Shown here: in pieces, positions 3,232 to 7,808 of the stretch
Numbering within the stretch: the first letter of the stretch is position 1
Layout of the letters: every line of letters begins with the position of its first letter
Origin: Naegleria gruberi
Taxonomy: Eukaryota
Assembly: GCA_000004985.1 (NCBI GenBank)
Contig: GG739102.1
DNA length: 7,808 nucleotides
Direction: 5' to 3' (one strand)
Program-made: the position numbers and the translations under genes
Notes under the pieces: model-generated
The model's database searches: none
What the model saw: only the letters and a program-made list of their open reading frames with translations
What the model was told of the DNA's origin: nothing

Positions 3232-3636
3232 ATGTCTACCGAAACATTCAAGTTCCAAGCTGAGATTAATCAATTGATGAGTTTGATCATCAATACCTTC
3301 TACAGCAATAAGGAAATCTTCTTGAGAGAATTGATATCCAATGCTTCTGATGCTTTGGATAAGCTTCGTCACATCAGTTTGACTGAACCATCAGTCTTGG
3401 ACTCTGAAAGAGAGTTGTTCATCCACATTATTCCTGATAAGGTTAACAAGACATTGACCATTAGAGACTCGGGCCTGGGCATGACTAAGGCCGATTTAAT
3501 TAATTGTTTGATCCATAGTAATCACAATCACTGGGACCTTAATAAAATGCTCTTTGAAAAAATTTTAAAAAATATTTTCTCTCTTGCTCGACAACATGCA
3601 CCCCTTAATAAAATGGAATTTCTTCTTCAAAATTGA
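3232..3636 (+). pseudogene. HSP90: HSP90 (Hsp82/HtpG family) N-terminal fragment. Homologous residues 1-91 are encoded at 3232-3504. An unrelated 43-codon tail then runs to TGA at 3634-3636. This is a truncated or chimeric HSP90-derived ORF.
   Basis: The translation starts [47 protein letters not shown]...[18 protein letters not shown]. This is the HSP90 ATP-binding N-domain up to the G1 box. The expected continuation NLGTIAKSGT...GQFGVGFYS (ATP lid and G2 box) is absent in all frames downstream. The tail [43 protein letters not shown] is instead low-complexity. Near-invariant positions are substituted: DKIRY is DKLRH here and DSGIGM is DSGLGM. Confidence 0.7.
3537..3615 (+). repeat. Exact 13-bp direct repeat CCTTAATAAAATG at 3537-3549 and 3603-3615. 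It sits inside the non-HSP90 tail just past the homology breakpoint.
   Basis: The exact 13-mer was seen twice, 66 bp apart. Confidence 0.4.
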
Positions 3637-3905: not shown

Positions 3906-4171
3906 TTGCAACACAATGTGAAACAAGCCTAAATTCCTTCCTTATTCGAAATTAACTCAAAAAAAAAACGCTGCATTTATTGACTCACATAGTTGACAAA
4001 TCAATATTTGCAACACTTGGCAACAAGCCTTTGGTATACAATTCATCACAAGACTTTCATCATCATCACAACAAGACTTTCATCACAACCCTGGTTCACA
4101 TCTAACTGACATAACTAATTTTCAATCTTTCATCAAAATTCAAATTATCTAAAAACAAGCCTTTTTGCAAC
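3906..4171 (+). repeat. Dispersed short motif family. AACAAGCCT occurs three times (3922-3930, 4022-4030, 4154-4162). TTGCAACAC occurs twice (3906-3914, 4008-4016), with TTGCAAC at 4165-4171. The first two instances form a composite unit of 23-25 bp, TTGCAACAC-N5-7-AACAAGCCT.
   Basis: The exact 9-mers were seen at the listed coordinates. The spacing between instances is about 100 and 132 bp. Confidence 0.45.
4044..4084 (+). repeat. Imperfect tandem duplication. The sequence is CATCACAAGACTTTCATCA followed by CATCACAACAAGACTTTCATCA.
   Basis: Read directly from the sequence: two adjacent units of 19 and 22 bp sharing CAAGACTTTCATCA. Confidence 0.6.
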
Positions 4172-4290
4172 TTCACATCTACCAGATACAAAACCATAAG
4201 AAACAACCCTATTCAAATCCATTCAAGTCTCGCAGCAACAACAACACTCATCATTCATTCACTAATTAAATCCTTCGTCATACCATCACA

Positions 4291-7200
4291 ATGTTATCAG
4301 CATCAGCAGAAAATAATCTGCAAGACATGTTTGCTCAATTCCTCAAAGGTCAAAGGGTTGACACTGGAATGGAAGAAGAAAACAAAAAGTTGAAGAAACA
4401 AGTTAATTTTCTCCAAAATCTTGCCTGGGAAAAAGAGCAAGAACTTGAAGAAAGGGATAACGCATTCTATGCAATGGCTGCAAGGGTTGATGGAGGTGTG
4501 CTAGCAAAATATTATACAAAAATAGTTAAAAGTGATAGATCCTATAGAATGCAAATCAATACCATCAAACAACAACTCAAAGAGTGTGATCCAGATGATA
4601 CATTAATTATGAATTCCTTAAAGAAGAAGATTGAGACATTAAACAAGGAACAAGAAGAAGATAAATCCCAATATTTCCTTGAGTATGAGAATGCAATGAA
4701 GATTACTGATGCTGAATTACATGCCATTTACCAAAAACACAATGCAGAGATGTTGGAACAGAAAAAGTTGATTGACTATCTTTATGCAAAGAGCAACGAA
4801 TACGAGTTGACTGGAAAGAAACTTAATGATGGACTGATGGGGAAGGCGTTAGAAATTGAAATACTCAAGAAAAGAGTACAAGAGACTGAGAATCGTTTAA
4901 GAGATGAAGAAAATAGATTTTTAACAGCACAAAATCAGACAATGAATGAATTTGATCTCCGAAACAAATCATTAATTTCAGAAATGAATACTAATCATCA
5001 ATCATTAATATTAGAATTGGACACAAAGCATCAAATGTTAGTATCAGAAATGAATCAAAGATACATGACAAAATTGTCTGAGTTGGAAGAAGAAAACAAG
5101 CAATTAAGGGTCGATACATCAAATTTTTTGCTAGAGTTACAACATTCAAAGTTAAGAATTGATCAATTGGAACTTGAAGTTAAGGAAGCAAAATTAACAC
5201 AGCTAACACTTGGACAGGCAGCTATTAATCAAACTCCTACTACATATTCCAGAACTGAGGCCATGAAAGATTTCAATATCGGTGCATTTTCTGGTGATGC
5301 CATGAGTATTCTCCTTAGACCTCAACAAAGACAAACAATTAGAGAATTTCAGTTCAATCCAGAACAAGACAATGTTACAACATTCCAAGGATATATAGAA
5401 GCTTCAAGAAAAGTGGGTAAAAGAACCTTTGAGAAAAACACTTTAAACAATCATAGGTGTGCAGTAAGGAGTTACTTGAAATTTATTTCAATGTCTCCAG
5501 AGGAAATAGAAGTTATTCCACCAAATAATGATGCCATCAATGCTTGGTTGTGTTTCTTAGCAAGAGAATCAAAGGCCTTCAACACTATTTTGAATTATGG
5601 AAGAGGATTATTAAGCCATATCAGAGAAGAAACAGGTGCCAAGAACAATGCCTCAATAGACCAACTAGACTATAGAAGATTTTCTTCCACTTTGAGTAAC
5701 ATTCTCAAATCATTTGGAAATGAAGAAGAAAAGGCATTAGTATACGATGATGTGGAATACTTTAATGTAATGAAGAAGAGTTATTCATCAACAAGAAGAA
5801 CTATTCTTAGAGATAGAGCCATGTTTGCCTGTCAGAGTGCAATTGGTCAAAGACCAGACTCTATTTCATTCATGAAATTGCGTGATGTTGAGATTTTTAT
5901 CACAGTTGACAAGAGGGTCAAAATTATTTACTCAACCAGGAAAATGAAGACAATTTTGAAAAAACCTCACAAACAGCCAATCACTTCTCAACATAATGGT
6001 GATAGAGAGGTTTGTCCAAATCATGTTTTATTGAACTATCTTATCGCAAGAGGTGCTTTGGCTTCATATGACATCAATACTCCGTTGAACAAAGTTTTGG
6101 AAACTCCTGGTCAAGTATTGATAAAAACAGATATGCAAGACAAGTATTTATTTCCTTGCATGAAAGTAGATGGAACTTTTAGAGATAACAATCGTTTAAG
6201 GACTTTGTATTTCACAAGAATATATCGTCAGCTTTTTTCATTAGCTGGCTACAACAAAAAGGTCAGTGGATATTCCCCTAGAAGATCCTGCGTTACTAGA
6301 ATGATTGAACACTTTATGGACAAAAACACTTACAATGCTGGTGCAGAAGTGGTTGTTAAATGGATTGGTTGGGAAGCTGACTCTAAGGTTTTTAGAGAAT
6401 ATGTTGATGATGTTGTCAAGAACCACCTCAAAATTGGTGACATTTTTGGTTTGAATGAAAATGAACAAGACGGTGAAGAAGATGAGCAAGAGGAAGATGT
6501 TGATGAACAAGATCTAGAAGTAGAGGATGAGGAAGATGACCAATTAAATGAAGATGATGATGATTATCAACAGTCATCAGAATGCATTTTAAATGATGAT
6601 GAAATTGAACTTGAATTCATTCTCAAGATTAATGATGATCAACAATCACCAAGAAGTGTAGAGCTTAATATTGAAACAAGACCAGGATTAGACCCTCAAA
6701 TATCAGCCTACATTGAAGACAAATGTAGAACACTTTATGAATTTCCAAATGATCTCATTATCAAATTTCATTCTAAAATGAGAATTCGTTTTGTGAATTT
6801 TTTATTTTTTGCTCACTTTGAATTAATGCTTCAATTCAAAGACACTTGTAACAATAGAAGATTGAATCAAGAGCAGAGAACCAATCTTAAAATGTCAATT
6901 ATTAATGAAAGATTGAAGAATGATAATTTTAGAAAATCACTTGAAGAAGATGTTGAAAAATTTTTCACTAGAATTATGCCAAGTAATAATCCTTCTAAAG
7001 ATTCTAAATTTGATATCTATTTCAAAGGTATTGATATTCCTATTCGTTATCATGACAAAGCTATTGAGATATATGATTCTGCTGATAATGATATGAACGA
7101 TGAATCAGATCAAGATGAGGTGATGATTACATCTGGTGCAGATGAAGATGAGCAAGAAGAGGCCAACTCAAACTCATCAATCATTACATGGACAGCACTT

Positions 7201-7808
7201 TCTAGAGGAAAGACTTTTCCAAAGATTAGATATATTGCAAAGACGTTAATTTTGAGGGATTCTAAACTCAAAGATAGACTTAATGTCATTCTTCCCAAAA
7301 ACAAAACGAAATATATTGTTTCTAAAGCTTACATCATTCTTTTATTGAAGGAATTACGAGTGAAAGGACTGACAATATTACATGATTTGTTACCACATAT
7401 GAAAAGGCTCAAATCTTGGCAAAATTCTTATACAATCCCAACAAATTTTACTTCTGGAAAAGCTTTTAACAATTACTTATTAATTGAAGGTTATGGTGAA
7501 AAGTTTATTCATAAGAGTGAAAAAGTTAAAGAAAGATTTATGGAATTATTTGTTGGCAAAGATGGTAAATGCAGGGTAGTAGAATATGATGTGAACACTT
7601 TAGAAATAATTCAAGATTCTAAATATCAAAACTCCTTCAGGAAAGCATGTGATTTAACTAAATGTAATTCAAGAAGTGAATCCTATCATTTTCGTTCAGA
7701 TTCAGTTAGGGCACATTTAGAATCTTTAGATGGTATTTCCACAATTTTCAAGAAGGGTAATTATATTTCAACTGCCAATGTTTATGAAAATGAAATGTCA
7801 ATCAAACT
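4291..7808 (+). CDS. Large ORF, 3'-open, of at least 1172 aa. It encodes an N-terminal coiled coil, a central tyrosine-recombinase domain (phage-integrase, Cre/Flp, Crypton-like), an acidic linker, and an unassigned C-terminal region. It is probably the transposase of a Crypton-like mobile element or a gene domesticated from one.
   Basis: The ATG is at 4291. An in-frame TAA lies at 4267 and no earlier ATG follows it. I checked codon by codon that there is no stop through 7808, giving 1172 codons plus 2 nt. It is missing from the ORF track only because it has no stop in the window. Box I is GQRPDSISFMKLRDVEI, with R521 at nt 5851, and it mirrors lambda Int GQRVGDLCEMKWSDI. The lysine region is TRKMKT (K551/K553). 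YSPRRSCVTR (Y661, R664) sits at the HxxR position, compared with Cre HSARVGAARD. WIGWEADSKVFREY (W694, Y704) matches Cre GGWTNVNIVMNYI with the catalytic Tyr 10 residues after the Trp. An upstream region resembles a core-binding domain (RCAVRSYLKFI...AINAWLCFLARESKAFNTILNYGRGLL). The codon usage is coherent, and the antisense ORFs over it are short. Confidence 0.85.
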   Translation, partial: MLSASAENNLQDMFAQFLKGQRVDTGMEEENKKLKKQVNFLQNLAWEKEQELEERDNAFYAMAARVDGGVLAKYYTKIVKSDRSYRMQINTIKQQLKECDPDDTLIMNSLKKKIETLNKEQEEDKSQYFLEYENAMKITDAELHAIYQKHNAEMLEQKKLIDYLYAKSNEYELTGKKLNDGLMGKALEIEILKKRVQETENRLRDEENRFLTAQNQTMNEFDLRNKSLISEMNTNHQSLILELDTKHQMLVSEMNQRYMTKLSELEEENKQLRVDTSNFLLELQHSKLRIDQLELEVKEAKLTQLTLGQAAINQTPTTYSRTEAMKDFNIGAFSGDAMSILLRPQQRQTIREFQFNPEQDNVTTFQGYIEASRKVGKRTFEKNTLNNHRCAVRSYLKFISMSPEEIEVIPPNNDAINAWLCFLARESKAFNTILNYGRGLLSHIREETGAKNNASIDQLDYRRFSSTLSNILKSFGNEEEKALVYDDVEYFNVMKKSYSSTRRTILRDRAMFACQSAIGQRPDSISFMKLRDVEIFITVDKRVKIIYSTRKMKTILKKPHKQPITSQHNGDREVCPNHVLLNYLIARGALASYDINTPLNKVLETPGQVLIKTDMQDKYLFPCMKVDGTFRDNNRLRTLYFTRIYRQLFSLAGYNKKVSGYSPRRSCVTRMIEHFMDKNTYNAGAEVVVKWIGWEADSKVFREYVDDVVKNHLKIGDIFGLNENEQDGEEDEQEEDVDEQDLEVEDEEDDQLNEDDDDYQQSSECILNDDEIELEFILKINDDQQSPRSVELNIETRPGLDPQISAYIEDKCRTLYEFPNDLIIKFHSKMRIRFVNFLFFAHFELMLQFKDTCNNRRLNQEQRTNLKMSIINERLKNDNFRKSLEEDVEKFFTRIMPSNNPSKDSKFDIYFKGIDIPIRYHDKAIEIYDSADNDMNDESDQDEVMITSGADEDEQEEANSNSSIITWTALSRGKTFPKIRYIAKTLILRDSKLKDRLNVILPKNKTKYIVSKAYIILLLKELRVKGLTILHDLLPHMKRLKSWQNSYTIPTNFTSGKAFNNYLLIEGYGEKFIHKSEKVKERFMELFVGKDGKCRVVEYDVNTLEIIQDSKYQNSFRKACDLTKCNSRSESYHFRSDSVRAHLESLDGISTIFKKGNYISTANVYENEMSIK
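4363..5280 (+). other. N-terminal coiled-coil region of the large ORF, roughly residues 25-330.
   Basis: It is K/E/Q/L-rich and heptad-like, for example NKKLKKQVNFLQNLAWEKEQELEERD, LEIEILKKRVQETENRLRDEENRF and LSELEEENKQLRVDTSNFLLELQHSKLRIDQLELEVKEAKL. It has no Pro or Gly. The 12-mer TCAGAAATGAAT is duplicated internally, encoding SEMN at 4978 and 5047. Confidence 0.5.
5440..6420 (+). other. Tyrosine-recombinase domain (core-binding-like plus catalytic) within the large ORF. It spans roughly residues 385-710.
   Basis: See the motif list in the CDS entry. The residues R521, K551/553, Y661, R664, W694 and Y704 appear in canonical order and spacing. Confidence 0.7.
6454..6573 (+). other. Acidic low-complexity linker NENEQDGEEDEQEEDVDEQDLEVEDEEDDQLNEDDDDYQQ. 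A second D/E-rich patch lies at about 7072-7165.
   Basis: GAA/GAT/GAG-rich codon runs are seen directly. Confidence 0.6.

Follow-up and report, generated by a model that had tools for sequence, protein, structure and literature searches.

What is the long protein region that follows a tyrosine recombinase (YR) domain on a small scaffold of Naegleria gruberi, and does it belong to the recombinase? The stretch analysed here, called the window, is 7,808 nucleotides (nt) long and represents an entire small unplaced scaffold of this eukaryote (GCA_000004985.1, contig GG739102.1; GC content ~33%). It carries a single long open reading frame (ORF) whose YR domain is followed by more than 400 amino acids (aa), hereafter the tail. 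Our favored reading, to which we give about even chances, is that the tail is a genuine accessory part of the protein of a YR mobile element: its basic C-terminal segment (CTD2), carried on acidic tethers, would most likely add nucleic-acid or chromatin binding and target choice, and the acidic tracts would be spacers or self-masking DNA mimics. We infer this function from the position and charge of the tail and by analogy with known elements. Overall, the protein fits best as the product of a Crypton-like YR element from a new and very restricted lineage; its bipartite tail is an orphan.

A long reading frame that stays open to the scaffold end

Frame 1 is open from 4270 to 7806 (1179 codons) and runs off the scaffold end without a stop, as anticipated by the original prediction, which had the frame continuing past the window. 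Counted from the first methionine at 4291, the ORF (4291-7806, plus strand, ~3.5 kb) encodes 1172 aa. The region that had been flagged, 6454-7806, contains no stop in the 451 codons of the reading frame; the other five frames hold 25-79 stops (29 and 79 in the other two plus-strand frames), and 2000 mononucleotide shuffles of the region averaged 40, with 23 as the lowest count. Because 451 stop-free codons at ~30% GC face at least 23 stops in every shuffle, the tail cannot be random sequence. Its synonymous codon usage correlates with that of the recombinase part (r 0.86), of the N-terminal part (r 0.81) and of the host TFIIE-beta gene (r 0.70). The flagged region is genuine coding sequence.

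A four-part architecture had been proposed for the protein. It proved sound, and its parts could be delimited along the ORF as a helical N-terminus, a YR module, an acidic linker and a C-terminal region consisting of CTD1, a second acidic tract and CTD2. The evidence used to place each part (including isoelectric points, pI, and a metagenomic relative described below) is given with its coordinates:

4291..5250, plus strand: N-terminal helical (coiled-coil-like) region, aa 1-320; sequence, periodicity, presence in the metagenomic relative
5251..5730, plus strand: core-binding, SAM-like N-terminal part of the YR module, aa 321-480; Phage_int_SAM_1, the metagenomic relative, local alignment with the Cre N-domain
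5731..6435, plus strand: catalytic YR domain, aa 481-715; Phage_integrase, DUF3435, phrog_216, Cre register
6436..6588, plus strand: acidic linker, aa 716-766; charge, pI, DNA repeats
6589..7074, plus strand: CTD1, orphan, aa 767-928; near-neutral, pI 5.7, folded-like composition
7075..7176, plus strand: second acidic tract, aa 929-962; net charge -14
7177..7806, plus strand: CTD2, orphan basic segment, aa 963-1172; open at the scaffold end

The N-terminal ~300 aa are low in proline and glycine and show a strong amphipathic-helix periodicity at 3.6 residues, which none of 2000 shuffles equaled. No strict 3.5-residue heptad signal was found there in a crude test. Of the N-terminal coiled coil of about 300 aa that had been described, the helical, amphipathic character thus stands and the strict heptad pattern does not, which leaves a coiled coil plausible only. 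Toward the end of this region lie three consecutive 11-aa repeats (SLISEMNTNHQ, SLILELDTKHQ and MLVSEMNQRYM, approximately aa 229-261, window 4967-5070), encoded by 33-nt tandem repeats.

A tyrosine recombinase recognized by weak but concordant matches

Three Pfam families matched the middle of the ORF below their thresholds: Phage_integrase over aa 611-706 (E 1e-4, 22.6 bits, cut-off 27.1), DUF3435 (PF11917) over aa 515-666 (E 5e-3, 16.2 bits, cut-off 25.8) and Phage_int_SAM_1 over aa 365-398 (E 0.011). In addition, the PHROG integrase family phrog_216 matched the recombinase with an E-value of 3e-5. No DUF3504 match was found for the recombinase in Pfam, and phmmer of the catalytic domain against PDB sequences gave no match. 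Judged from these family matches, which are weak but concordant, the ORF encodes a tyrosine recombinase in its middle part.

The catalytic residues were placed by alignment with Cre, whose known catalytic positions checked out in the sequence used. In this register, R521 corresponds to Cre R173, K544 to K201, Y661 to H289, R664 to R292, W694 to W315 and Y704 to Y324. Y661 and R664 are positioned by 'SGYSPRR' opposite 'SGHSARV' of Cre, and W694 and Y704 by IGWEADSKVFREY. The catalytic set R-K-H-R-(H/W)-Y is therefore present, and its sole departure from that of Cre is Tyr661 at the His-I position. The telomere resolvase ResT also has a tyrosine at this position. The tyrosine recombinase is apparently intact, and its domain ends ~16 residues past the catalytic Tyr704, exactly at the start of the acidic linker.

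An acidic linker followed by an orphan bipartite tail

The claim of a strongly acidic linker behind the recombinase domain was confirmed: aa 716-766 carry a net charge of -27 (pI 4.05), basic residues are absent from 721 to 750, and the segment is disorder-like on a charge-hydropathy plot. Its DNA consists of imperfect 9-15-nt GAA/GAT-rich repeats, and the second acidic tract has a DNA repeat in common with it. Non-coding or intron status of the linker was considered and rejected, the segment being in frame, free of stops and repeat-generated.

Between the acidic linker and the scaffold end lie 406 aa, in line with the predicted C-terminal region of at least 400 aa. Two peptides that had been quoted from it were located, ITWTALSRGK... 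starting at aa 965 and KCRVVEYDV... starting at aa 1093. CTD2 is strongly basic (pI 9.75, net charge +17), above all in aa 963-1075 (pI 10.3). Outside the acidic tracts, the composition of the tail falls on the folded side of the charge-hydropathy plot. A search for internal duplication in the tail, or for likeness to the rest of the ORF, found only the two acidic tracts matching each other. The 406 aa contain 5 Cys and 8 His, and the canonical spacing of a zinc-finger-like pattern is absent.

Within the DNA that encodes the C-terminal region there is a 22-nt inverted repeat (91% complementary, 6991-7012 and 7712-7733, 699 nt apart), for which a rough estimate gives ~0.05 occurrences by chance. 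Near it, the peptides KDSKFDIYF (6998) and QDSKYQNSF (7613) show direct similarity.

Searches for relatives of the tail

Pfam searches with aa 722-1172 (E<=1) and with aa 767-935 and 961-1172 (E<=10) yielded no credible family. The classes without a match in the tail include GCR1_C, Myb/SANT, helix-turn-helix, zinc finger, reverse transcriptase (RT), RNase H (RH), methyltransferase and peptidase. A profile search for GCR1_C and Myb/SANT domains, which the original prediction had proposed, is thereby answered without a match; its statement that GCR1_C is not recognizable in the C-terminal region agrees with the lack of any Pfam family at E<=10; and no clear match to an unrelated enzymatic domain, the outcome that it had named as speaking against it, was seen. 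We accordingly rejected a GCR1_C identity of the tail (no Pfam match to E<=10) and an RT-containing pol within the window (no RT/RNase H match at E<=10).

No match to the tail was obtained in NCBIfam (E<=1) or PHROGs, in a word index of 5.8 billion proteins, in scans of metagenome and viral contigs, or by tblastn against phages and plasmids. A viral contig scan with the recombinase was likewise without a match, and a viral origin was rejected for lack of viral homologues. When aa 330-1172 were searched exhaustively with phmmer against 1.84 billion representative proteins, a single protein, P0001, was found, which matched aa 331-450 only. For aa 767-1172, neither the word index nor the exhaustive phmmer search held a matching protein of any organism. 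The exhaustive search gave no orthologue of the ORF, and the underlying collection includes proteins of N. fowleri, N. lovaniensis and Willaertia. The tail thus contains no known domain, and the restriction of the protein to its lineage is extreme.

The whole ORF had no match in the word index either, itself included; therefore, it is not annotated as a gene, unlike TFIIE-beta on the same scaffold. That it is missing from all protein collections searched would fit masking of repeats ahead of gene calling.

A decayed metagenomic relative

P0001 is 51% identical to the SAM-like region (E 6e-27), the only part of the ORF with a database relative in that search. It is encoded on two metagenome contigs, L001 (JGI 3300002220) and L002 (ENA ERZ27315067), which are 100% identical over 1386 nt. 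By tblastn, the similarity extends over ORF aa 243-535 at ~41% identity, from the last part of the helical region through the SAM-like domain to the first catalytic Arg box; after repair of frameshifts, the metagenomic copy is 53% identical to the window. The copy contains in-frame stops and a stretch of ~30 codons that is readable only in another frame (L001 3150-3240). Because these lesions are present in contigs of two independent samples, they are real and not sequencing errors; they represent a compensating frameshift pair and are pseudogene-like. Both contigs end before the catalytic core. A scan of metagenome contigs with a two-sequence profile found no further relative.

A second fragment precedes the start codon of the metagenomic copy by ~140 nt. 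This relic of a YR 3' end (L001 2290-2425, identical in L002) reads W-K-A-D...MFREYVDEVVKDKLEV and corresponds to W694-I714 of the ORF, with 27 of 33 nt identical to window 6391-6423 and a 5-nt deletion. Lying side by side, the two decayed fragments look like transposon debris, and their arrangement suggests copies in tandem or, alternatively, a terminal repeat of which the 3' end of the ORF is a part.

Comparison with known recombinase elements

Several features of the locus are consistent with a mobile element: the ORF is unannotated, it lies on a 7.8-kb unplaced scaffold, it adjoins a broken Hsp90 gene, and its sole relative is decayed and sits beside a second fragment. Neither the 3.5-kb ORF nor the ~800 nt 5' of it showed an RT, and for this reason a YR-only, Crypton-like DNA element of an undescribed narrow lineage is the most economical reading.

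Among published Cryptons, CryptonF combines a YR with GCR1_C, CryptonS combines a YR with a different conserved C-terminal region, and animal Cryptons have no C-terminal domain; Naegleria was not part of that survey (Kojima & Jurka 2011, PMC3212892). Such group-specific C-terminal regions behind the YR support, by analogy, the view of the tail as an accessory part. With CryptonF of fungi and oomycetes, the ORF shares a large single protein, a YR as the sole enzyme recognizable up to the scaffold end, and a non-catalytic C-terminal region; no RT is visible on this side of the scaffold end, past which the ORF and the element continue. It differs in having no GCR1_C and in its host, a heterolobosean amoeba, and it goes beyond CryptonF with its ~320-aa helical N-terminus, two poly-acidic tracts and a longer tail (at least 406 aa). 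The closest architectural analogy is CryptonS of oomycetes and a diatom, in which the YR is followed by a group-specific C-terminal region other than GCR1_C. However, the exhaustive search revealed no similarity to any stramenopile protein, a comparison that did not include the CryptonS reference sequences directly. Cryptons of any group are marked by multiple copies and by defined termini with direct repeats of only 5-6 bp; those of CryptonS are of the TATGG type. CryptonA/I, the DUF3504 genes of animals and Glomhopper of Glomeromycota (PMC13465315) resemble the ORF as eukaryotic YR-only elements, but the ORF has no DUF3504 match and animal Cryptons have no C-terminal domain.

By analogy, the ORF would work most like a Crypton, with a YR as the only enzyme seen and an accessory tail behind it. 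At the same time, it shows neither GCR1_C nor DUF3504 nor any detectable similarity to a Crypton protein; none was returned by the exhaustive phmmer search of 1.84 billion representatives, and by this measure the ORF does not cluster with known Crypton YRs. The earlier framing in terms of fungal Cryptons did not hold, since the host is a heterolobosean amoeba and no Crypton-specific family was reached. Likeness to the 'captains' of Starships consists in a eukaryotic YR and the weak DUF3435 match of the catalytic core, which at 16.2 bits stays below the Pfam cut-off of 25.8; Starships carry cargo genes and are found only in fungi of the Pezizomycotina.

In the proposed mechanism, the N-terminal helical region would drive oligomerization, and the SAM-like and catalytic domains would perform cleavage and strand exchange. 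The tail would ride on a flexible acidic tether and bring in the basic CTD2 as an accessory module that binds nucleic acid or chromatin and serves targeting, a putative positional and functional analogue of the fungal GCR1_C or of the CryptonS C-terminal region. The acidic tracts, in turn, could be spacers, or could mimic DNA intramolecularly and so mask the basic domains. In a more specific form, which we put forward only tentatively and consider doubtful, the locus would represent an undescribed heterolobosean lineage of YR DNA transposons whose basic C-terminal module adopts a new fold for targeting DNA or chromatin and recognizes either the element's own subterminal AACAAGCCT/TTGCAAC repeats (see below) or a genomic target.

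If the ORF encodes the recombinase of an active element, YR-only DNA transposons of the Crypton type would extend to Heterolobosea and Discoba, with an architecture seen in no described group. The tail would then be a third, unrelated accessory domain behind a YR, after GCR1_C of CryptonF and the C-terminal region of CryptonS. Domestication has repeatedly turned accessory domains of this kind into transcription factors and centromere proteins, and any new one would therefore be a potential source of lineage-specific DNA-binding folds. With no relative among ~1.8 billion representative proteins, the tail is dark protein sequence; on present evidence it is an orphan tail in an under-sampled protist, which is a common situation, and its interest is moderate at best.

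Alternative explanations

Several findings weigh against an accessory role of the tail, and most of them also speak for a functionless, non-conserved extension, acquired through a lost stop codon, a fusion or a rearrangement into unrelated sequence. The tail has no homologue in any search, no recognizable DNA-binding motif and no direct evidence of function. Its GC content at third codon positions (GC3) is 0.22, compared to 0.30-0.31 elsewhere in the ORF. Single-sequence AlphaFold2 models gave no confident fold and were unusable, with mean predicted local distance difference test (pLDDT) scores of 34.5 and 31.2, the latter for CTD2; the CTD1 model stayed at pLDDT <50. Moreover, the metagenomic YR relic reaches a stop 19 codons past the end of the YR domain (~35 past the catalytic Tyr) and has neither acidic linker nor tail, suggesting that the tail may not be conserved or universal in the family, as far as a short and degenerate relic can tell. 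Two further points concern the element itself: with Tyr in place of His at His-I, recombinase activity would not be guaranteed, and the scaffold ends inside the ORF, so that the 3' end of the element lies beyond it. Nevertheless, we consider a functionless extension unlikely. The relic is itself decayed by its 5-nt deletion and may be truncated, and an extension of this origin is hard to square with 451 stop-free codons at ~30% GC, with codon usage that matches the rest of the ORF (r 0.86) and with a folded-like composition outside the acidic tracts.

The ORF could instead be a host gene that was domesticated from a recombinase, in the manner of Gcr1/Ndc10 or the DUF3504 genes, with the tail as a host-specific regulatory or interaction region. 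In favor of this reading are its length, its intact frame, its host-like codon usage and the detection of only one copy. Moreover, domestication of Crypton recombinases has occurred repeatedly (PMC3212892), and the replacement of His-I by Tyr would fit such a history. Against this, the other catalytic residues including the nucleophile Tyr are kept, unlike in most domesticated YRs, and N. fowleri, N. lovaniensis and Willaertia have no orthologue. The ORF is also unannotated, although the neighboring gene on the scaffold is annotated; it lies directly downstream of a truncated Hsp90 gene, and its single relative is a pseudogene that lies next to a second fragment. A domesticated gene appears quite unlikely.

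VIPER and TATE, two groups of YR retroelements, occur in kinetoplastids, which belong to Discoba, the supergroup that includes Naegleria. The region might be the front of a DIRS/VIPER-type pol-like segment (gag-like, YR, RT/RH), with the RT located beyond the scaffold end. The ORF is open at this end, and its helical region upstream of the YR recalls the gag-like part of DIRS, Ngaro and VIPER-TATE elements; in known YR retroelements, a gag-like ORF accompanies those for YR and RT/RH, and the YRs of VIPER and TATE group near those of Cryptons (PMC6681497). For N. gruberi, only uncertain, frameshifted DIRS1-like remnants have been listed (Piednoel et al., PMC3266345). In contrast, the window contains neither RT/RH nor methyltransferase, no RT or RNase H is detectable at E<=10 in the 451 aa after the YR, and the exhaustive search returned no RT-bearing homologue. 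The helical region and the YR form one in-frame fusion, other frames hold no overlapping ORF, and YR and RT usually occupy separate, overlapping ORFs in known elements rather than a single fusion across an acidic linker (PMC6681497). We regard a retrotransposon origin as improbable.

Finally, phmmer against PDB sequences returned one marginal match for the tail, the N-terminal domain of the AlbF homolog 7y8u_F, an M16-type peptidase (ORF aa 1000-1084, window 7288-7542, versus residues 19-104; E 0.008 with the CTD2 query and 0.026 with the 406-aa query). This match is probably due to chance, because HxxEH is not conserved (the motif position reads P-H-M-K-R, with LLPHMKRL opposite AHFLEHLKF), no other M16 structure was matched and family profiles gave no support. 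A degenerate M16 (pitrilysin/AlbF-like) peptidase domain that has lost catalysis is thus a very improbable identity for CTD2: an aligned G...N.Y...E pattern downstream of the active-site helix and the peptidase of some oomycete Cryptons, though of C48 type (PMC3212892), speak for it, whereas the E-value is marginal after several searches, a single family member in PDB was matched despite many M16 structures, and neither Pfam (Peptidase_M16, E<=10) nor NCBIfam (E<=1) gave a match.

Upstream motifs and neighboring genes

The remaining features of the window lie upstream of the ORF:

3906..4171, plus strand: cluster of three exact AACAAGCCT motifs in C/A-rich non-coding DNA upstream of the ORF
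3-962: partial TFIIE-beta gene, TFA2_Winged_2 Pfam match, E 1e-15
3232-3504: start of an Hsp90 gene, first 91 codons, frame closing at a stop at 3634

The three matches of AACAAGCCT compare with 0.04 expected, and none of 200 shuffles reached three. Each lies at most 16 nt from a TTGCAAC, which occurs at 3906, 4008 and 4165. The two motifs are candidate regulatory sites, or candidate binding sites of the recombinase or its accessory domain; the region upstream of the metagenomic relative does not conserve them.

The Hsp90 gene has an intact start, a good codon bias and 91 well-conserved codons up to '...GMTKADLIN', after which similarity is gone from ~3505; no plausible short intron is visible at this break. 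The 785 nt from the break to the start codon of the ORF are non-coding. It is possible that the break near 3505 marks the 5' boundary of the element; a recent insertion into one of the Hsp90 alleles would explain it, and so would a chimeric assembly of a repeat. Look-ups of exact proteins, made to extend the scaffold or to place the Hsp90 break, found no other contig.

An N run at 1249-2913 (1665 nt, a scaffold gap) separates TFIIE-beta from Hsp90, and because of it their adjacency rests on scaffolding alone. The TFIIE-beta/Hsp90 synteny is absent in N. fowleri, in which TFIIE-beta precedes an F-box/leucine-rich-repeat gene. Scans of the window for tRNAs and Rfam families gave no matches. The TFIIE-beta fragment is 100% identical to an annotated NCBI entry, 'predicted protein, partial [Naegleria gruberi]', and 69% identical to the orthologues of N. 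fowleri and N. lovaniensis.

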